Shown here in pieces: positions 16,042-62,400 of a DNA stretch of 64,000 bases (its first letter is position 1; every line of letters starts with the position of its first letter). The position numbers were made by a program, and so were the translations under genes. The DNA comes from Eledone cirrhosa (Eukaryota). Location: NCBI GenBank assembly GCA_964016885.1, contig OZ024741.1, positions 362,886,001-362,950,000 on the forward strand. The letters are read 5' to 3'. The notes under the pieces are model-generated. The model searched no databases. It had not been told where the DNA came from and was given only the letters and a program-made list of their open reading frames with translations.

Positions 16042-17030
16042 GTAGAACACTGGAAGGTAATATCCGTAGTGGTAGAGCAGTCGGTCCATGGGACGAGTTA
16101 GGTAGAAGTGGCTACACAACAGTTAGTTCACCATACCGAGAACATTTGTTTCACCTTAGCGGATCCTTAGCTCGTAATGGACATGGTTATACGGAACAGG
16201 AAGGACAACCATGCGAATGCGCATGCGCAGAAACGATCACTTCACACAGGCAATACTAAATTGCGTGCGAGAGGTGTAAGGGAGATAACTGCAAAAGTCC
16301 GAAAGTTTCTAGTTGATAAGAAAATTAGGATGTAATTTAATCCGGAGCTTTGTAGTTATGTAAGAGGTGTTTCCAGACATGTGGACAACGTGTGAAGAAT
16401 TCATTTCTTGTGTTTAGGCAATCACTATTGCATAATCTCTTTAGAATATTTATTCGTTCATCAATACATAGTCCACACCACGGATTTCCCTTTGCGTATG
16501 GCTTTCCATTGAATGGAGTAGTCTATACTTGAGACAGACGTTCATCCACGAAACTCGCGAGCAACGTATGGTCCCTCAAGGACTCAAGTTTAGACTAATT
16601 GCATTCATAGGAAAGCTATCACTAAGTCCAAGCCATACGCAAGGGGCAATCCGTCGTGTGGACTATGTATTGATGAACGAACAAATATTCTAAAGAGATT
16701 ACGCAATAGTGATTGCCTAAACACGAGAAATGAATTCTTCACATGTTGTCCACATGTCTGGAAACACCTTACATAACTACAAAGCTTCAGATTGAATTAC
16801 AACATCTTAATTTTCTTATCAACTAGAAACTTTCGGACTTTCGCAGTTATCTCCCTGACACCTCTTGCACGCAATTTAGTATTGCCTGTGTGAAGTGATT
16901 GTTTCTGCGCATGCGCGTTCGTACGGTTGTCTTTCCTGTTCCGTATAACCATGTCCATTACGAGCTGAGGATCCACTAAAGTGAAACAATTGTTCTCGGT
17001 ATGGTGAACTAACTGTTGTGTAACCACTTG
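16038..17030 (+). mobile_element. Penelope-like element 3' end with inverted duplication (fold-back), in (TA)n
   Basis: arms ~16106-16533 and ~16583-17029; + strand reads STKLASNVWSLKD...KPYARGNPSCGLCIDERTNIL...CLNTRNEFFTCCPH*, a PLE endonuclease C-terminal pattern; hammerhead motif downstream. Confidence 0.8.
16961..16998 (+). ncRNA. minimal type I hammerhead ribozyme motif
   Basis: CGAG-CUGAGGA-(weak stem II)-GAAAC-AAUU-GUU-CUCG; palindromic stem III ACAAUUGU; stem I CGAG/CUCG extended by CCAU/AUGG. Confidence 0.65.
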
Positions 17031-17498
17031 TATATATATATTACCATTTATCCATGCTAGCATGGAATTTTGGATGTTAAACAGTGATGATAATGATTCC
17101 ACTGTTAGCAAGGGTTGGATTGATCTTCACAGACTGAATCAATACCGAGTGCCATTTATCATAACACCAATAGCAGTGAGAGAGTTGTCATGTCTTTGAC
17201 ACAGCTGAAGAGTCTTTTCAACCCTTTGTTTGGTAGGGAAACGGGTGTTAAATGATGACAGTATATGTGTGTGTGTATGTATTTATGTGTCTGTTTGTTT
17301 GTGTCCCTTAACTTACTGGTTCAACAAATAAGAGATTGATAAATTAAGTACCAGACGAGCAAAGTATAATTATTTGCATTGATATGATCAACTAAAAACA
17401 CTTTTCTTTGTTACTGAAGCCAGTAAAAGGATACAGGAGTAAATTTTAACATTTCAATAGTTTGAATTATCTTAGAAACATTTCTGCTTTCTTTTCAG

Positions 17499-20276: not shown

Positions 20277-20391
20277 ATAATAATAATAATAATAATGAAA
20301 TTATTGTGTAAAGTGCTCAGGTGCACTACAACTCGTCAATATAGTACATAGAATAATACACAAATGTCAGGGAAGTACATGTTTGTATGTG

Positions 20392-23213
20392 TTAGCTGTA
20401 GTGTTGGCGGATCTCGGGAAGCATGGAGGCCTTAAAGGATGCAGTGTCTCGACAGCTAACAACTGATGCAGGTAGTTTATTCCATGCTTCAGCAACTCTG
20501 AGAGTGAAAAAATGTTTCCGAAAGTCATGGGAACTGTGCTGTTTTCTTACTTTGTGGGCATGTCCACGTGTGTTAGACACATGGAAATCGAAAAGGCACT
20601 CAGGGTTGTTGTTGGCAACATGGTTAACAATTTTGTGGGTGTTTACCAAGTCAGTTGCCAGGCGTCGGAGCTTCAATGAATCCATGCCCAGGGAAGCAAG
20701 GCGCTCAGAGTATGGTAGATGCCTGATGGAGGGTATTCGCTTGGTTGCACGTCTCTGAACAGTTTCCAGGCGGTCAATGTCCTGAGCAAGATAGGGGTTC
20801 CAGACTGGTGATGCAAATTCTAAGTGTGGTCGCACCATAGCTGTATACAGCCTTAAATAGATATCTGGAGAGCGGCTGACAAAGGTCTTGCTGAGTGATG
20901 CTAAGACACCCTCGGCCCTCTTGACAATTTTAGAGACGTGCCTCGTCCAACGCAAATCGCTGCTGACCGTAATGCCCAGGTCACGTTCACAGGAAGACTT
21001 CTTGATATTAGTGCTGTGGAGGGAGTATGTGGACGCTGGGTTTTTACTCCCAAAATGCATGGTGGTGCACTTGTCCACAGCTAGCTTGAGTTGCCAGTCT
21101 GAGATCCACTGTTGCATTGTGTCCAGGTCAGACTGCAAGCAAGATCTATAGTGTTCAGGATCTGTCCTTTTTATCTCAAGGTACAGCTTGATGTCGTCTG
21201 CGTACTTTAGTACTGTGGCATTCCTTAAGTTGGCATCTATGTCATTAATATATGCCACAAACAAAAGGGGGCCAAGAACAGATCCCTGAGGTACACCAGA
21301 TGACATCTCATATGGTGAGGAATGCTGTCCCAGAACCGTGACTACCTCTCTTCGACTGAGAATGAAGGACTTCAACCAGTTAAAAAGATCATCCTTCACA
21401 CCCATTGCAGAGAGTTTTGCCATAAGCCTTTTGTGTGGCACAGAATTGAAGGCCTTCGCAAAGTCAAGGTAAACAACATCCACCCATGAGCCGCCATCAG
21501 TGATCCGGGTGATGTCCTCAAGAAACTCTATAAGTTGATCACAGCAGCTGGAGTTGGGGATAAATCCAAATTGCGAGGGCCGGATAAGACTGTGAGAGCT
21601 CCAGAAGTTCCAAAGTGTTTCTCTGACACAGGATTCCATCAGTTTGGCGATGCAACTAGTAAGACTGACTGGACGATAGTTCACAGGTGATGTGCGGTCA
21701 CCCTTTTTGAACAGAGGAATGACACTGGCAGTTTTCCACTGTTCTGGAGTAGCACTGTTGTTCAGACAGAATTGGAAGAAGCGTGATAACTGGTGTAGAA
21801 GGAAGTACCCACCACGTTTAAGAAGCAGGTACGTAACACCATCAAGACCAGGAGAGGCATGGTTGCGTTTATTTTTTAGGTGACGTCGCAGCATTGCAGG
21901 TGTAAATTCCATGGTTGTAATAGAGTCCGGTGTCATAGGTGGTGGAGATGGTACACTCTGGTCTTCAATGGTGAAAATGCCTGCATAGCATTCAGCAATG
22001 AGCTCTGCGCATTCCTTGGGGTCGTCAGTAACCTGGCTTGTGTGGGGATTGCGAAGAGGACCAACTGAAGAGTGAGGCCTCTGCTTTGAGTGAACATACT
22101 TCCAGAACACCTTACTGTCAGGGCTGGTTGCTATGCGCTGCTCAAATTGAAGCACTGCCTTTTTTGTCACCGGTTTGAGGTGGTTGGACGATCTAATTCG
22201 CCTCTTCCTATTAATGTCTGATTTGTGAAGTTTGTACTCACGTTCAGCATTGCGCCGTTCTTTTCTGGCAAGACGGACTGCTGCAGTCTCCCAAATTGCG
22301 CTTTTAGGATGTTTTTTCTGCTTACGTGGCACCGATGCTGCACATGCTGTCCATATTGAGCTCAGGATGTTCTGGAGTACAGTGTTGACATCTCCAGAGT
22401 CATAGAACTCAAGCCAGTTTGGCCGTTGCAACTCGGTGCAGTAACAGTTCCAGTCTGCTTTATTCCAGTCAAAGTGAGCAGTTTGGAGATGGTTGTGGTT
22501 CTTGTTACTGCCCATGAGGGATAGATTGGCAATGATCATAGCATGATCAGAGTCACCTAAAGGTTCCTCAGCCTAATGACCGTTTCAGGAGTAGTGGTGA
22601 AGAGTAGGTCCAAAGTGTTGTGACCTCTCGTTGGGGAGGTGACCACCTGGGACCAACTCGAGTCCAGCACCAGCTCAAGGAAGTCATTTGCACTTGGCGG
22701 CCAACGAAAGGTCTCCCAGTCAATCTCAGGGTGATTGAAGTCACCTGCAATGAAAACATAAGTGGCTGTCTTCCTGGCAGCAGCTCTGAGGATATCACAA
22801 AGTTGAGTGTCCTGATGGTAATTTGGGGGACGGTAAACGACTCCAAGTAGCAGTGTTGACATGGTCATACGTATATCGCAGAAAAAAACTTCCTGCTGTG
22901 ATTGGTTCAAATCAGCACAAGGAATTGCCGACAGATTTGACCGAACGTAGACCATTACACCACCACCACGACGATTAATACGGTCTTTACGAAACAGGTT
23001 GTAGCCAGTCATGCTGAAAACCCCATCACAGAGTAAGGGATGTGCCCAAGTTTCCGTGACTGTAATGAAGTCCGGGTTGATACTTTTGACGTAGGAGTCA
23101 AAAAGATGAATCTTATTGCATAGACTACGTGCATTCAAGGACAACAGTTTGTACTTTGATTCCAGTCTATGATTATGTGCAGGGGATGGCAGGTTGTTCT
23201 GATTTAGTTTCCC
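20392..23213 (-). pseudogene. CR1 ORF2 (APE endonuclease + reverse transcriptase), broken by a 7-nt deletion near 22571
   Basis: ORFs 22557..23144 and 20392..22539; the copy at ~61580 reads TTTPEVVISCTTEEPLGDSDH and is 7 nt longer at this point. Confidence 0.9.
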
Positions 23214-24058
23214 AGAGTTTTTTCAGTTTCTTTATTGTCAGTTGTTGTGGGTACACTGTTTTCAGACCAGCTGGTGTCTCTTTTCCATGATTCGCCAGCC
23301 TTAACAAACTTCCATATCTGCCCATCATCTCGTAGGCTGAAGCTTTCATGTTCTGCCGAGCTGCGGTTTAGGGAAGCTGCAGCACGCAACTTTGGGCGGA
23401 CATCAGGTGGAAGACCAGGACGTGTTCGGAAAGCAATCCGACTTTCACGCCTAGCTTTATCAGAGGCTACAAGGTATGAACGTGCCTCAGTTGAGTTTGA
23501 AAACGACAGTCTAATTAACCTGGGTTTCGGGCCTGGTCGGCCAAGGCGTAGAGCACCCTTTGCGGAAGCACAGCCCAGGTCTTTGGATGAACTGGCAGCA
23601 AATGCCTGAAGATCAACTATGTCTTCCGGCACACCAATGGCAATCACTTCGTGGTTTGCAGATTCAGTGGCATTCTCAATGCGTCTAGGTTCAACATGAG
23701 GTACGCGGAGATTTTTTAACAAGGCACTCCGGTAAGATCCCTCATTGTGCGGTTCTACACGAACGCTTGATTTTATTTCCGCTATTTCTTGACTTAAAGC
23801 GGAAATCATTTGCCGTATTTCCTCAAACTCCGTATTGACGGTCGGTTTTTGTTGTTCTTCTCCTTCAACAGGCATGGTAGAAGACACAGTCGTCGGTTGT
23901 TGTTGTTGAAAAGTAACGGGTGAGGAAGACATGGGTTGCTGTTGTTGATGAAGTCCTTCAACGGGGGTAGTAGCAGAAGCTACGGTCGTTGGTTTTTGCT
24001 GTTGTTCAGCGACAATGGTAGAGGAAGACACGATCCTCGGTTTTGATGATATATTCAC
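23204..24058 (-). CDS. CR1 ORF1 protein (possibly 5'-truncated)
   Basis: 284 aa; Q/T/P-rich N-terminal repeats, coiled coil, RLGRPGPKPRLIRLSF motif typical of LINE ORF1; ends TLGN*. Confidence 0.8.
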   Translation of the reverse strand: MNISSKPRIVSSSTIVAEQQQKPTTVASATTPVEGLHQQQQPMSSSPVTFQQQQPTTVSSTMPVEGEEQQKPTVNTEFEEIRQMISALSQEIAEIKSSVRVEPHNEGSYRSALLKNLRVPHVEPRRIENATESANHEVIAIGVPEDIVDLQAFAASSSKDLGCASAKGALRLGRPGPKPRLIRLSFSNSTEARSYLVASDKARRESRIAFRTRPGLPPDVRPKLRAAASLNRSSAEHESFSLRDDGQIWKFVKAGESWKRDTSWSENSVPTTTDNKETEKTLGN

Positions 24059-36647: not shown

Positions 36648-39600
36648 CATCATCATCACGATTTTACGTCCGTTCTTCCACGCTAGCATGGGTTAGATGG
36701 GTTGTCCTGTTGTGGGCAGTGTCCGGTCAGCTGACCTTGTCTTGCTCATATGGGAACTGATTCTGGCTTGATTTCTACAGCTGGATGCCCTTCCTAACAC
36801 CAACCTCATTTACAGTGAATGCAGAGTGCTTTTTTTCTGTGGCACCTACACGTCCACTTTACAGTGTGGGCTGGGTGCTTTTTTGCAGTGGGAGGGTTTG
36901 GGGGCATATTGTCTATATGCTTCAGCTTCGGCTTGTACCCGTGGGCTCGGGTCTTCTGTATTACTGCGTGACGCCAGAGGTGACGGTCGTGTGTCATCGC
37001 CTTTGAGAGGTGTAATTGGATAAGGTCGACTTATCACCTCATCCCAGGTGTTCTTGGGTCTCCCCACTCCGCGCTTTCCATCAACTTCTAGTGCTCTGCA
37101 CCTTTTTATGCAGCTGTCATCCTTCATACGCATCACATGTCCATACCAACGCAACTTCCTCTCCTGCACACAGCATTTGATTCCTCTTATGCTCAGTCTC
37201 TCTCTCAATTCATTTATGCTTTGCTGTTCGTATACACACATCATACAGTCTGCCTTTCATTTTGAGGGAAAAGCCTTTTGCAGCTAGCAGTGGCAGTAGC
37301 TCCCTGAACTTCTTCCATCCCGTTCTTACCCTAGTTATTGTACTTTCCGAACACACACCTCCGCTGCTAATTCGGTCAACTAGGTAGCAGAAGCTGTCTA
37401 CTGTTTCTACAGAGCCCTCCCAGAGTTTGGTGGTACTTATTTCCTGTGGCTGTTTGTTGATTGCTGTCCCAGCACAGCTGCTACATGTGAAGCCTACATT
37501 CTTAGTTAAGCTTCCTGAGATCCTGCTACATCTCTTGTGTACCCATTGTTTGCATTTGGGGCAGAGAATGGAGTTCCGACCTACACCTTTCCTACATACT
37601 CAGCAAGGCCATTTCCCTGAAGGGATCTGGGTTCTGTTTTCTCGTCTACTTACAAGGACCTTAGTCTTTGTCATGTTGACTTTGAGACCCTTTCTTTCTA
37701 GTCCCTGCTTCCAAGTTTGGAATTTATTCTCTAGTTCTACCATAGATTCAGCTATAAGTGCGAGGTCATCTGCATACAGGAGTTCCCATGGGCATCCGGT
37801 CTTAAACTCCTCCGTTATTGCCTACAGGACTATGATGAACAGGAGAGGGCTAAGAACAGAGCCCTGGTGGACACTGACCTGTACGCTAAATTCCTCGCTA
37901 TACTCATTGCTAATCCTAACTTTGCTGACTGCTCCCTTATACATGGCTTGTACAGCTTTCACAAGCCATTCATCTACTCCTAGTTTTCTAAGAGCCCACC
38001 AGATTACAGCACGTGGAACTCTGTCAAAGGCTTTCTTGAGATTGACGAATGCCAGGTAGAGTGGCTTACTTTTAGCTAGGTACTTTTCCTGTAACTGCCT
38101 CACAAGAAAGAGGGCATCAGTGGTGCCACTTCCTGGCACAAACCCAAATTGCATCTCGTCTATATTCACCCGGTCCCTAATCAGCTGTGCTATAACTCTT
38201 TCTGTTACTTTCATGACCTGGTCCATCAGCTTTATACCTCTATAGTTTCCTCTATCTAGTGCATCACCTTTACCTTTGTAGCAGTTGACAATGATGCTAC
38301 TGCACCAATCCTTTGGTATGACACCTTCTAGTATTACCTCGTTAACAATACGTGTGGTTATGGTGTGACCTACCGACCCAGATGCCTTCAGCATCTCGGC
38401 AGCTATACCTGATGGACCGGTTGCCTTCCCCGTCTTCATATCTTTGATTGCCTTACTTACTATGCTGCTGCTGACTTGTACTGCTGGCCCCTCTATAGGG
38501 TCTACTTGGGGTAGGGTCATTTCTTCCCATGCATTCTCCTCATTTAATAATCTATTATAATGGCTCTTCCACGCATCTTTCTTCTCAGCACTTGTAAAGG
38601 CAAGCTCACCTTTATCATTCTGGATACACTTCTCTCCAATGACATCACAATTCTCTCTGACACACTGCCTCGCAATATGTTTCTGGTCCTCGCGTTGCAA
38701 AACATGCTTGAATTTTCTATCCTCTGCTTCTCTTCTAGCTAAGTATACTTGTCGCCTAGCTTCCCTCCTGGTCTCTATGTAATGTACTCTGCTTCCCCCG
38801 TCTTTCCATGCCTGTCTCTTGGCCTTAACTGCCTCATCTACCTTATTGTTCCACCACCAAGTCACTCTCCTCCTGCCTGTGGTTTTACTCCAGCCACAGA
38901 TCTCATCCGTCGCCTTTAGTAAGTTATTTTTTAAGAACTCCCAGTGCTCTTCTACATTGAATGTCTTTATCTGTTCTTCTTTACTGTCATAGGCATTGAG
39001 TAAAATATCTTTAAATCTGTTACTGGCTGAGGTGTCTTTCTTCTCCAGGTTCGTCTAGTTCTGACCGTGAGGCCGCTGACAACTAAGCTATGTTGGGAGG
39101 TACATTCCTCACTAGGGAAGGCTTTTGTGTTTACGACTGTCCATCTGTCACGTCGTCTGATGAGGATAAAATCTATTTGACTAGAATGCTCCCCTGATCT
39201 ATAGGTGATCAGGTGGCTGTCAGGTTTTTTGAAGTTTGTGTTACATATCGACATGTCATTGGCGTCGCAGAATTCTAGAAGCCTGAATCCTTCTTCATTT
39301 CTTGTGCCAACCCCATGGCCTCCATGGACTCTATAGAAGCCGTCACGGTGTTTACCTACGTGTCCATTAAAATCTCCTGCAATGATTAGGAAGTCATTAT
39401 CGTTTGTTAGGGCAGTAATGTGCATTAGGGACTCGTAAAACCTATCCGTAAGTTCGTCTGGCAACCCCGATTGGGGTGCATAAGCTGATATTGTGGTAAT
39501 TGTTTTATTCGGGACTAGTCTGAGTTTAATGATTCTTGCATTCACCCTGTTCACTGAGATTACCTTATCTACCCACATGTTAGCTAGTAGGATACCTACA

Positions 39601-39890
39601 CCACCCATCCCATCGTCAGAAAAATTTGTAGCACTGATTTTTTTTCCTACAAGGACTCTAGCAGACTCTCCTCTCCATCTAGTCTCTTGCACACAGCATA
39701 CATCAATTTCCTTTCGCTCTAGCATCTCTACGATTTCTCCTGCTCTTCCTTTCATTGTGCTTATATTGATGGTACCAACTCGGAGTTTTGGGCATTTGTC
39801 AACATTCGTGGGAAAGATTTTTGCAGGGGTGTGTGTATGCTTCCTGTCTCTGAATTGAAACTTCACATGGGTGCTTGGTAGCTCGCGGAT
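36648..39890 (-). mobile_element. near full-length degenerate RTE-clade LINE
   Basis: APE (VQETRW, GDFNGHVG, SQH), RT (NYRGIKL, QFGF, LKKAFDRV, HQGSVLSP), RTE C-terminus (RLRWYGHV, GRPKNTW), (GAT)n tail; several stops and frameshifts. Confidence 0.92.
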
Positions 39891-56375: not shown

Positions 56376-56937
56376 TATAATCAAAGAAAATGAAGAAAGA
56401 GAAGCAGACTGTTAAAATATACTTTATATGGAGCTCTTACACATGTTACGCCTAAGTTGGGCTCGTCAGAGGCTCAGAGGGAGGTAAAAGTTTTAATTAT
56501 GGACCCTGTATGGGTACGAATACAATGTTCACATCGAAATTCATATCGAGTGTTACAGAGTTAGTAAGCAACTAACTCTGTAACACTCGATATGAATTTC
56601 GATGTGAACATTGTATTCGTACCCATACAGGGTCCATAATTAAAACTTTTATCTCCCTCTGAGCCTCTGACGAGCCCAACTTGGGCGTAACATGTGTAAG
56701 AGCTCCATATAAAATATATTTTAATGGTCTGCTTCTCTTTCTTCATTTTCTTCGATTATAATTGCTCTGCTTATCTTCGCACATTAAATATTAATGCTTC
56801 TAATATTTAACCCCGTCTGTATAAGCACCGAACACTAAAGCACTTGCTGCTGGCAATTAATTATCTGTATCGTCTCCTCCTATGACGTTTCTTCTTTTCT
56901 TCTCTCTATATTCTTTCTCACGATACTATAACATTTT
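56376..56937 (+). mobile_element. fold-back element with 190-bp arms and single-copy tail, probable Penelope-like end, in (TA)n
   Basis: arms 56376-56565 and 56571-56760, loop AAGCA, tail to ~56937; hammerhead-like motif in each arm. Confidence 0.7.
56661..56705 (+). ncRNA. hammerhead-like ribozyme motif with GUAA core variant (mirror copy 56431-56475 on -)
   Basis: GAGCCU-CUGACGA-GCCCA(ACU)UGGGC-GUAAC-AUGU-GUA-AG(A)GCUC. Confidence 0.6.
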
Positions 56938-58333: not shown

Positions 58334-59049
58334 CTGAGAAATAAAGCAAATGTGGTAAATCAGACATTTATATAAATTACAGGTGTGTGTATTATTTTAC
58401 TGGAGCTGACTTACCTGGGAGGAGATGGAGGAGGCATGGTGAAAGAAGAGAGAAATATGTCATGAGTTGGTAGAGGATTAGATGCAAGCCAGTGAAAGAT
58501 GGCAATCCAGGGCTTGCAAGTCATTCCCTTAGGAAAGCCTATGGAAACCCAGGTATTGCAGGTGTGAGCAAGAGTAGAGCCACCATGACACCATGAACAA
58601 AATGGAAGCAGCAGAGAGAGCAACTAGATTACTATGGTTGAAGAGATGTGACTGGCAGGATTAGTAGAACCAAAACACCCAGTTTCATACAAGCAGTATA
58701 GAATTCTCTGTTCCAGAATTGCTATACTATGTAATTAACACTATATCATAGATTAGAATAAGGCAGATAGGTAGGTAAATAGGTAGGCTGATAGGTAGGT
58801 AGATAGATAGATGGATGGAATGTAGTACAATGTATACAATAAAATAGCATAGTACTGTCACATTGACCAACAGACAAATATAGATAAATACACTGTAGTA
58901 CAATATAGATTATATGTATTATCTGTATTACATGTTGTATGAGGCAATATGCCAGCATAGAAAAGTAGATGTAAATATGATGATGATGATATAATTTAAT
59001 TTTGAGTTCAAATCTTTTATAGAACTGCCTTACTATGTATTCATGAGTT

Positions 59050-59304
59050 ATTGAAGCATGGAACAAACTACCTGCATCAGTTGTTAGCTGCTGAGACATT
59101 GCATCCTTTAAAACCTCCATGCTTTCTGAAATTCGCCAACACTACACCTGATATCCCCCCTCTGTACACATGCACACATATATATCATGACTCATACACT
59201 GTTCAATTTCCTGACATTTGTACATTATTCTATGTACTATACATACACCTTTGATGAGTTGTAATGCACCTGAACACTGTACACAATATTTTCATTATCA
59301 TTAT
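59050..59304 (+). mobile_element. CR1 subfamily B 3' fragment
   Basis: EAWNKLPAS plus 3' UTR matching 42950-43204. Confidence 0.85.
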
Positions 59305-59342
59305 TTCATGATTTTTAATATTATAATAATATCATAATATTA

Positions 59343-59534: not shown

Positions 59535-59642
59535 AATATCATATTATTAATATTCGTTTTGTTTGATTGTTTTCTCTCAGCTACCACTGGAACAAAAGGA
59601 TGAAGTTGTTCATCTACCACGTGGTGTTTTATGAGGCTGTTT

Positions 59643-62400
59643 AATAATAATGTAAATATTGTGTACAGTGCTCAGGTGCACTACAACTCATCAAAAGTGT
59701 ATGTACAGTACATAGGGTAATGTACAAACGTCAAGAAAATGAACAGTGCATGAGTCATGATATACACATGTGTGCATGTGTATGGAAGGGGGACATCAGG
59801 CGTAGTTTTGGCGAATTTCGGGAAGCATGAGGGTTTTAAAGGATGCAGTGTCTCGGCAGCTAACAACTGACGCAGGTAGTTTGTTCCATGCTTCAGCAAC
59901 TCTAAGCATGAAAAAATGTTTCCGAAAGTCATGGGAGCTGTGCTGTTTTCTGATTTTGTAGGCATGTCCACGTGTGTTAGACACATGGAGATAAAAAAGG
60001 TGCTCAGGGTTGTTGTTGGCGAGATGGTTAATAACTTTGTGCGTGTTTACCAAGTCCATTGCCAGACGTCGTAGCTTCAATGAATCCATGCCCAGAGAAG
60101 CAAGGCGTTCAGAGTATGGTAGGTGTTTGATGGAGGGTATGCGCTTGGTTGCACGTCTCTGAACAGTTTCCAGGAGGTCAATGTTCTGAGCAAAGTAGGG
60201 GCTCCAAACTGATGATGTGAATTCCAAGTGTGGTCGTACCATAGCTGTATACAGCTTTAAATAGATGGCTGGAGAGCGGCTAACAAAGGTCTTGCTGAGT
60301 GATGCCAAGACACCTTCGGCCTTCTTGACAATTTTAGAGATGTGCTTTGTCCAATGCAAATCGCTGCTGACAGTAATGCACAGGTCACGTTCACAAGAGG
60401 ACTTCTTGATATCAGTTAAAAAGATCATCCTTCACACCCATTGCAGAGAGTTTCGCCATAAGTCTTTTGTGTGGCACAGAATTAAAAGCTTCAGCGAAGT
60501 CAAGGTAAACAACATCCACCCATGAGCCACTGTCAGTGATCCGGGTAATGTCTTCAAGGAACTCGATAAGCTGATCACAGCAGCTGGAGTTAGGGATAAC
60601 AACAAATTGCAAGGGCCGGATGAGGCTGTGAGAGCTCCAGAAGTTCCAAAGTGTTTCTCACAGGATTCCATCAGTTTGGCAATACAGCTAGTAAGACTGA
60701 CTGGACGATAGTTGACAGGTGACGTGCAGTCGCTCTTTTTGAACAGGGGAATGACACTGGCAGTTTTCCACTGCTCCGGAGTAGCCCCATTGTTGAGACA
60801 GTATTGAAAGAAGAAAGAAAGCTGGTGCAAAAGGAAGTACCCGCTACGTTTGAGAAGCAGGTATGTAACACCATCAAGACCAGGGGAGGCATAGTTGCGC
60901 TTATTCTTAAGGCGATGTCGCAGCATTGCAGGTGTAAATTCCATAGTTGTTATGGAATTTGATGTTAGAGATGGTGGAGATGGTACATTCTGGTTTTCAA
61001 CAGTAAAAATGCTTGCATAGCACTCAGCAATGAGTTCTGCACATTCTTTGAGATCGTCAGTGATCTGGCTTGTGTGGGGATTGCGAAGGGGACCAACTGG
61101 AGAGTGAGGTCTCTGCTTTGAATGTACATATTTCCAGAACACCTTACTGTCAGGATTGGTTGCTATGCACTGTTCAAATTCAAGCACTGCTTTTTTTTGT
61201 CACTTGCTTGAGATGGTTGGAAAGATTTATTCCGCTTTTTTCTGTTGGCATCTGATTTATGCAGTTTATATTCCCATTCAGCAAGTCGGACTGCTGAAGT
61301 TTCCCAAATTGAACTTTTGGGGTGGGTTTTTTTCTGTCACGTGACACTGATGCTGCACACGCTATCCATATTGAGTCCAGGATGCTCTGGAGTATAGTGT
61401 TCACATCTCCAGAGTTATACATCTCATGCCAGTTTGGGCGCTGTAGCTCAGTGCAGTACAAGTTCCAATCTGCTTTCTTCCAATCAAAGCAAGCAGATTG
61501 GAGATGGTTCTGGTTTTTGTTGCTGCCCACAAGAGCCAGATTGGCAATGATCATAGCATGATCAGAGTCGCCTAGAGGTTCCTCAGTAGTACAACTGATA
61601 ACTACTTCAGGAGTAGTGGTGAAAAGCAGGTCCAAAGTGTTGTCACCTCTTGTTGGAGAGGTGACTACTTGTGACCAGTTTGAGTCCAGCACTAGCTCAA
61701 AGAAATCGTTTTCACTTTGTGGCCAACGAAAGATTTCCCAATCGATCTCAGGATGATTGACGTCACCTGGAATAAACACATAAGTGGCTGTTTTCCTGGC
61801 AGCAGCTCTGAGGATATTGCAAAGCTGTGTGTCCTGATGCTAGTTTGGGGGCGATAAACAACACCAAGCAGAAGTGTTGACATGGTCATACATATGTCAC
61901 AGAAAAAAATTTCTTGTGATTCGTTCGAATCAACACAAGGAATTACCGAAAAATTTGAATGAACGTAGACCATCACACCACCACCACGGCGATTAATGCG
62001 GTCCTTACGGAACAGGTTGTACCCAGTAATGCTGAAAACCCCATCACAGAGTAAGGAATGTGCCCATGTTTCCGTGACTGTGATGAAGTCAGGGTTGATG
62101 CTTCTGACATAGGAGTTAAACAGATGTATCTTGTTGCATAAACTGCAAGCATTTAAGGACAACAATTTGTACCCTGCTTGCAGTTTATGATGGTGTGTAG
62201 AGGATGGCAGGTTGTTCTGGTTTAGTTTCCCAGAGTTGTTGCAGTTTTTTCATTGCCAGTTATTGTAGGTAGAGCGCACTCAGACCAGCTAGTATCTCTC
62301 TTCCACGTTTCACCAGCCTTAACAAACCTCCAGATCTGCCCATCATCACGCAGACTAAAACTTTCATGTTGTGCTGAGTTCCGATTCAAGGAAGCTGCAG
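59643..62400 (-). mobile_element. degenerate CR1 LINE, subfamily B, retaining ORF1 end, APE and internally deleted RT
   Basis: ORFs 61692..62165, 61180..61779, 60432..61187, 59796..60428; deletion joins DDLFN to DIKKSS, removing YADD. Confidence 0.93.

Follow-up and report, generated by a model that had tools for sequence, protein, structure and literature searches.

A slippery heptamer and an AUG-less −1 frame at the ORF1-ORF2 junction of octopus CR1-type LINEs point to probable programmed frameshifting

Two copies of a LINE lie on the minus strand of the window, as we call the whole 64,000-nucleotide stretch of DNA analysed here. The region of interest in both, named copy A and copy B, is the junction between ORF1 and ORF2, where positions (+n) are numbered from the last base of a slippery heptamer. 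The features considered are as follows, (−) indicating the minus strand.

59642..62400 (−): whole copy B, CR1-type LINE, 5'-truncated, internally deleted and frameshifted, with ~93% identity to young subfamily B2
62232..62400 (−): ORF1 3' remnant of copy B, with the 5' truncation point at ~62400
62225..62231 (−): copy B slippery heptamer G_GGA_AAC, in the ORF1 frame, read from the sequence
62222..62224 (−): copy B ORF1 stop codon TAA, abutting the heptamer, likewise read from the sequence
62205..62219 (−): copy B segment +6..+20, identical in A and B, predicted unpaired, containing the in-frame CUG (62210-62208); candidate linear stimulator
62175..62189 (−): 5' arm of the copy B hairpin (+36..+50); 62185 is the A/G position of the compensatory pair
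62137..62151 (−): 3' arm of the copy B hairpin (+74..+88), within the endonuclease NARSLC codons; 62141 is the U/C position of the compensatory pair
62147 (−): copy-level CpG C-to-T change in the 3' arm of copy B, turning NARSL into NACSL
61692..62231 (−): copy B −1 frame, start of ORF2 (APE endonuclease), open for 179 codons
62153-62151 (−): Asn27 of copy B, −1 frame, endonuclease
62072-62070 (−): Glu54 of copy B, −1 frame, endonuclease
61973-61971 (−): first ATG of the copy B −1 frame, residue 87
20283..24044 (−): copy A, CR1-type LINE, 5'-truncated, a 99% member of young family A
23204..23213 (−): copy A heptamer and stop, the heptamer at 23213-23207
23119..23171 (−): copy A helix, 23171-23163 with 23127-23119 (8 Watson-Crick pairs and one G-U)
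23012-23010 (−): first ATG of the copy A −1 frame, residue 68

The initial annotation had recognised most of this layout in copy B, and its letters and coordinates proved correct: the heptamer GGGAAAC (62231-62225) is followed by TAA (62224-62222) with the same spacing as in copy A (heptamer 23213-23207), and over 15 bp the arm 62189-62175 is the exact reverse complement of 62151-62137. The substitution of Met-68 of copy A by Ile in B and a compensatory pair at +40/+84, G-C in A and A-U in B, were also confirmed. The open −1 frame without AUG stood as far as the absence of ATG until residue 87 is concerned, but copy B is a dead, decayed, 5'-truncated element whose −1 frame is open for 179 codons only. 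Other repeats were seen in the window. Two CR1 3' ends lie inverted, with 340 nt between them, at 59045-59305 (+) and 59642-59902 (−), an arrangement which could give a long double-stranded RNA if transcribed. A LINE from a different clade, RTE-like to judge by its motifs, occupies 37822-39890 (−); it is decayed but has frames for endonuclease and RT. A 190-bp inverted repeat (97%, 5 nt separating the arms) is found at 56376-56760 and a MITE-like nested inverted repeat at 16088-17047.

ORF2 carries the Pfam domains Exo_endo_phos and RVT_1, that is, an APE endonuclease followed by an RT. A profile search with the endonuclease matched L1 ORF2p (E 2e-51); a single-sequence search of the PDB gave no match for it. 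ORF1 spans ~409-457 aa from its AUG and has a Cys-rich N-terminus. When an AlphaFold model of ORF1 (mean pLDDT 70) was submitted to Foldseek, the top 10 hits were all L1 ORF1p (2yko/2ykp, E ~5e-6), and the predicted fold is a coiled coil-RRM-CTD arrangement, L1-ORF1p-like. A Cys/His pattern is visible at the N-terminus; no Pfam PHD match was obtained in the octopus protein, and a single one of 31 homologs gave one (E 0.0013). Four more distant LINE proteins (P0041, P0045, P0048 and P0061) have PHD and endonuclease in a single ORF, with RT in three of the four, and by this domain arrangement are natural N-terminal fusions to ORF2. In a midpoint-rooted FastTree of 99 ORF2 sequences, built without curated CR1/L2 references, the octopus element groups with two bird CR1-like proteins (0.915). 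We describe it as a two-ORF CR1-type LINE. The CR1-lineage LINEs with type II/IIC ORF1 (PHD plus transposase-22-like) described in parts of PMC4120745 likewise have an APE + RT ORF2.

To place the two window copies in the genome, 152 loci were fetched, yielding 130 distinct copies: 53 of family A, 32 of the older B subfamily (B1) and 45 of the young one (B2), a non-random sample since copies were chosen by query similarity or intact frames. The genome contains ~1,300 first-look candidates with the junction region, and an exact 25-letter junction pattern gave 774 matches. Families A and B2 are 86% identical, their intact copies have the same junction layout, and each has copies in which ORF1 starts with AUG and ORF2 measures 942-943 aa. 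Intact copies end in ATT repeats and have a short 3' UTR and no LTR. Protein searches of the genome with three outside relatives gave solely A and B among the loci fetched, and a search of this genome for other families, using a heptamer-upstream pattern with a non-Cys NARSLxNK motif, returned one decayed A copy; as a consequence, the helix analysis below is a comparison of three subfamilies. Three copies (L092, L197 and L191) have ORF1 and ORF2 joined in one frame, two of them as 1381-aa frames. A fused, single-frame subfamily was rejected because each of the three owes its joining to a different, independent private indel. In L191, which is B2-type, the region upstream of ORF1 matches the family A 5' UTR, and A and B2 may have a common or exchanged 5' end.

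Within the sample, heptamer and TAA are intact in 125 of the 130 copies, and a hand tally of the first 100 of the 774 genome matches found them intact in 62 of the 67 rows outside a tandem array. ORF1 ends Gly-Asn-stop upon the heptamer and ORF2 is open one base back. The first Met of the −1 frame (residue 68 in A, 87 in B) lies in both cases downstream of Asn27 and Glu54, which align with N14 and E43 of the L1 endonuclease, so that initiation at an AUG would remove the first active-site residues. The 16 nt spanning heptamer and stop are identical in A and B2. The stretch +4..+20 shows one A/B2 difference, versus 22 in 60 at other linker sites (P ~0.005); both stretches were chosen post hoc, and 6.7% of 33-nt windows across the whole element are equally conserved. 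An in-frame CUG at +15..+17, with A at −3, is kept in 129 of the 130 copies. Stop read-through was rejected, as the zero frame closes 22 codons on and is not the endonuclease frame. Altogether, the sequence comparisons argue strongly that the slippery site and the −1 frame lacking an AUG are under constraint, well past the two copies that the initial annotation had compared. For the selection on RNA structure which that annotation had proposed, support from the helix is weak.

Because ORF1 ends on a shared heptamer and the −1 ORF2 has no AUG ahead of its first catalytic residues, the enzyme is likely made by ribosome slippage. We consider it probable that the CR1-type ORF2 (endonuclease-RT) is produced by −1 programmed frameshifting at G_GGA_AAC, the hairpin being real, restricted to one lineage and probably not the trigger. 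Most ribosomes would stop at the UAA and release ORF1p, and a minority would slip back one base with the Gly- and Asn-tRNAs, giving an ORF1p-ORF2p fusion of ~1,350-1,400 aa. The slip would fix a high ORF1p-to-enzyme ratio, and the fusion would tether the enzyme to the ORF1p particle. More tentatively, help for the slip may come from the unpaired +6..+20 segment and from the stop next to the heptamer, and not from a stem 5-9 nt away. G_GGA_AAC and A_AAA_AAC are listed among the most shifty heptamers in passages of PMC5009743. Canonical −1 frameshifting in retroviruses, LTR elements and RNA viruses, as outlined there, shares with the octopus junction the X_XXY_YYZ heptamer in the upstream frame and the same gene order, a structural gene upstream and a polymerase in −1 without a start of its own. 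It differs in that the octopus host is a non-LTR element and that no stem or pseudoknot is predicted at 5-9 nt, the spacer given in the same passages for −1 stimulators (11-15 nt for a minority). When the octopus junction was folded without pseudoknots, no stable structure was predicted 5-9 nt after the heptamer, and the defining feature of textbook −1 signals is therefore missing; +1..+35 is essentially unpaired in the prediction and the hairpin starts at +36. With a spacer of 35 nt, beyond 5-9 (rarely 11-15) nt, it is too far away for a classical stimulator.

Relatives of the octopus element gave additional information about the site. In L093 (55-56% ORF2 identity), ORF1 ends CAG GGA AAC TAG and the −1 frame has no near-cognate start ahead of codon 24. 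Among the matches listed, 80 metagenome loci were analysed, 73 of which could be anchored and 40 of which had an ORF1 of at least 200 aa overlapping ORF2 in −1. These loci are mutually related and their counts are not independent events. Of the 40, 33 had the heptamer in phase, versus 0 and 2 in the other phases, using a pattern (GGA allowed as XXX, last base C) fixed after L093 had been seen. Thirty of the 33 in-phase heptamers lie no more than 33 nt from the last stop of the −1 frame, and at 25 metagenome sites the heptamer is G_GAA_AAC, which is less classical. A second anchoring, on the downstream ORF1 peptide, was possible for 43 of the 80 loci. In these, the wobble base preceding the site was G before GAA in 24 of 24 (background 170/538, 32%), A before AAA in 9 of 9 (126/569, 22%) and G before GGA in 2 of 2, and the Asn of the site was encoded by AAC in 37 of 37 (194/465, 42%). 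In distant relatives the heptamer is preserved as a nucleotide sequence, over and above what the protein requires. Six of the 43 have G_GGG_GA(C/A) instead and two match neither form. The TCG GGG GA(C/A) that replaces the heptamer in L102, L109, L124, L128, L134 and L150 is possibly a single-tRNA slip site. In 25 of the 43 loci (L094-L166, with the site inside ORF1) an octamer, GTGGTAGG, is fixed 12 nt past the heptamer, Val wobble positions included, and is a candidate linear stimulator.

The tails of ORF1 point in the same direction at the protein level only. Among ORF1 homologs less than 50% identical to each other, the C-terminal motif was present in 63 of 74, and 48 of those 63 had Gly-Asn in the variable low-complexity tail (mean 8.9, maximum 19 in 2000 shuffles); in all 48 the residue before Gly-Asn has a codon able to end in G. 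In many relatives ORF1 continues 20-140 codons beyond the slippery site. Similarity between metagenome and octopus ORF1 is weak (probability 70%, one locus tested), and in 9 of 72 metagenome loci the long upstream ORF is in another frame, in two of them via breaks within ORF1. In the ORF2 tree, one group (support 0.915) unites the slippery loci with the octopus elements and the two bird CR1-like proteins, and most loci of other layout fall outside it, L143 being an exception. Scans of viral and bacterial contigs gave nothing relevant. A stable structure after the slippery site was not general among the relatives (median z −0.38, 5 of 43 below −2). L093 has a hairpin of its own (L093:1293-1365), starting ~9 nt after G_GGA_AAC, at the classical distance, with a z of only −1.47. 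Taking these comparisons together, we lean towards a broad CR1 clade, from octopus and other invertebrates to bird-type elements, that makes its RT as a −1 transframe fusion without a textbook pseudoknot, relying on either short linear 3' elements or the neighbouring stop; the B hairpin would then be a recently grown distal tuner.

Other ways of expressing ORF2 have to be set against frameshifting. Termination-reinitiation at the CUG (+15..+17), with the hairpin 18 nt further on helping, would be the solution of SART1 and L1. The octopus element resembles the SART1 UAAUG coupling (passages of PMC3894237) and L1 ORF2 reinitiation (passages of PMC5009743) in having a bicistronic LINE mRNA, a low ORF2 output and RNA structure at the start of ORF2. 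That CUG is the one kept in 129 of 130 copies, within the conserved +6..+20 segment; downstream structure affects SART1 ORF2 initiation and L1 ORF2 initiation is AUG-independent, according to the same passages. Unlike SART1 and L1, however, the octopus element has no AUG at or near the stop, and its ORFs overlap in −1 on a slippery heptamer. Reinitiation also leaves unexplained the phase-specific heptamers, the covariation of the wobble base and the Gly-Asn tails, L093 has no such codon, and in many relatives ORF1 extends 20-140 codons beyond the site; we consider it improbable. Splicing or a separate transcript, with the heptamer being incidental, would not account for the wobble covariation, the Gly-Asn tails or the in-phase heptamers either, and is scarcely credible. 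Programmed −1 frameshifting is the reading we favour.

The hairpin downstream of the junction is real in lineage B. In copy B it reaches −27.5 kcal/mol (z −4.93), a value that none of 200 shuffles equalled, and in B2 its 15-bp stem is the longest perfect stem of the element (next 10 bp; z −5.72). The same region of family A, in which 11 perfect stems of at least 8 bp occur, is non-significant (z −0.46, 62 of 200 shuffles equally good). Pair states were counted by script over the 130 copies. At +40/+84, 50 of 53 A copies have G-C; A-U is found in all 32 B1 and in 38 of 45 B2, with G-U in 6 of the 45. The pair +46/+78 is A-C in all 53 A and in 22 of 32 B1, A-U, the state of the window copy, in 6 of 32 B1, and G-C in 43 of 45 B2; a hand tally of the first 50 of 395 genome loci gave G-C 25, A-C 21, A-U 3 and G-U 1. 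The A-U of the window copy is due to a C-to-T change at a CpG (62147), a change scattered over the tree, which replaces by Cys an Arg29 that is invariant in a 14-sequence endonuclease alignment, indicating decay and not selection. In a tree of 78 of the 130 copies, from which helix and CpG columns had been removed, B2 is nested in B1 via intermediates keeping A46, and the ancestral T21 never occurred with G46 in the first 100 of 380 pattern matches (hand tally: 27 T/A, 12 C/A, 61 C/G). Both observations suggest that B stood at 14/15 pairs and that B2 closed the last pair by one A-to-G change at the A-C mismatch, keeping the Arg; the hairpin (+36..+88) would thus have grown stepwise in lineage B. 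We rejected one template switch as the origin of the last pair, whose closing was a separate step of the B ladder. By the same reconstruction, the window copy reached 15/15 separately, by CpG decay after insertion. The annotation had reckoned with a perfection peculiar to one copy, and this is true of the 15th pair in the window, which is copy-level decay, yet B2 is itself perfect over 15 bp. It had also reckoned with subfamilies devoid of pairing, and L093, the nearest outgroup with DNA, has no helix. Though secondary in importance, the helix illustrates how a dead copy may, through CpG decay, come to look perfectly structured.

All 7 arm differences between A and B2 are Watson-Crick compatible in B2; those of the 5' arm are amino-acid changes in the free linker and those of the 3' arm are synonymous. 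Among the three subfamilies of this one genome, compensatory changes amount to one pair, one G-U/G-C change and one later G-U state, and several independent compensatory pairs across lineages were not found in the three subfamilies and L093. When the A-B divergence was simulated without structural constraint, the direction of A-B changes being unpolarised, one or more compensatory pairs arose by chance in 16-20% of runs. All nine core pairs were kept in ~10%, and together with a compensatory pair in 2-3%, a figure to be read with the post hoc choice of the helix; 14/15 pairs were reached from an A-like start in 0.04% and from a B1-like start in 5%. The NARSLC codons of L093 have no upstream pairing, its different hairpin beginning at ~+9, and the P0001 linker could not code for the 5' arm in register. 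Contigs from other organisms (eight runs) cover the junction piecewise; one contig end of organism B, which shows the 5' arm alone, differs at three bases of that arm, and a pattern matching this arm variant found only 2 decayed B copies in the octopus genome. No convincing conserved duplex was found between +4..+24 and long-range partners.

As to its role, the hairpin is unlikely to be part of a selected frameshift stimulator, be it stem 2 of a pseudoknot or a distal barrier queuing ribosomes over the heptamer. Both strands of the candidate stem 1 (+7..+14 with +62..+69) are invariant between A and B and begin 6 nt after the heptamer, the seven arm differences are all pairing-compatible in B2, and 14/15 pairs are rarely attained from an A-like start without constraint (0.04%). 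A distal barrier would also fit the spacing, as a ribosome footprint added to the usual 6 nt comes to roughly 35 nt. This stem 1 is nevertheless weak (7 bp plus a mismatch, −3.7 kcal/mol), with no covariation, and freeing its 3' strand would cost ~5 kcal/mol; family A is young and abundant, yet its helix is non-significant; L093, with its different hairpin at ~+9, and P0001, whose linker cannot encode the 5' arm, do without the helix; and past the UAA the hairpin would be reached only by already-shifted ribosomes. A functionless mutational by-product, that is, an inverted repeat improved by template switching, by CpG decay and by A-to-I editing of the paired RNA with its return into DNA, is quite conceivable, if somewhat short of an even chance. 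Amino-acid changes on the linker side and synonymous changes in the 3' arm are what would be expected if the linker had been copied from the 3' arm, the two later B changes are both A-to-G, that at +46 falling on an A-C mismatch and that at +40 reducing a pair to G-U, and the helix is dispensable in A. The closing of the last pair within the B ladder, rather than via one switch, speaks against it, as do the 9 core pairs that A retains through 3 changes (2-3% by chance) and the lack of a clear strand skew among B2-derived changes (11 A-to-G, 8 T-to-C), which leaves an A-to-I (ADAR) origin hypothetical. The rest of the probability falls to some other role, e.g. RNA packaging or reverse transcription. 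Selection on the hairpin is, in sum, plausible but unproven.

How LINEs translate ORF2 is described as an open question in passages of PMC3894237. The text searched in PMC5009743 deals, among non-LTR elements, with HeT-A, TART and L1 only and does not mention CR1, and the words 'frameshift' and 'overlap' are absent from the available main text of PMC4120745 and PMC13343379. Where frameshifts are mentioned in PMC1925062, PMC4700185 and PMC5405496, the subject is decay, LTR elements or a +1 shift proposed for Paramecium. Our literature searches returned no paper proposing −1 frameshifting for CR1 by title or abstract. The early literature on CR1 of chicken and turtle and on T1/Q of mosquito reportedly described ORFs that overlap or lie close together, and frameshifting may have been suggested there. 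Answers to the question of ORF2 translation exist, to our knowledge, for L1 and SART1 only. The nearest published statement, from the passages seen of PMC5911963, is that the Dictyostelium elements TRE5-A and TRE3-A are said to require a −1 frameshift for ORF2. These are, like CR1 here, APE-type two-ORF non-LTR elements, and unlike it are amoebal, target tRNA genes and have a zinc finger in ORF2. If our reading is true, a major animal LINE clade would use a retrovirus-like (Gag-Pol) solution, with a fused ORF1p-ORF2p enzyme predicted, and annotated CR1 ORF2s that start inside the endonuclease would be explained. The clade would also provide a large natural set of frameshift signals seemingly lacking the usual stimulator, and the young octopus families offer a short junction cassette that is directly testable.

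A junction of this kind was also found in a tandem array of ~33 units of ~890 bp (G000:C1:135629328-135657811), each containing the CR1 junction, with the heptamer altered in 31 of the 33 listed units.
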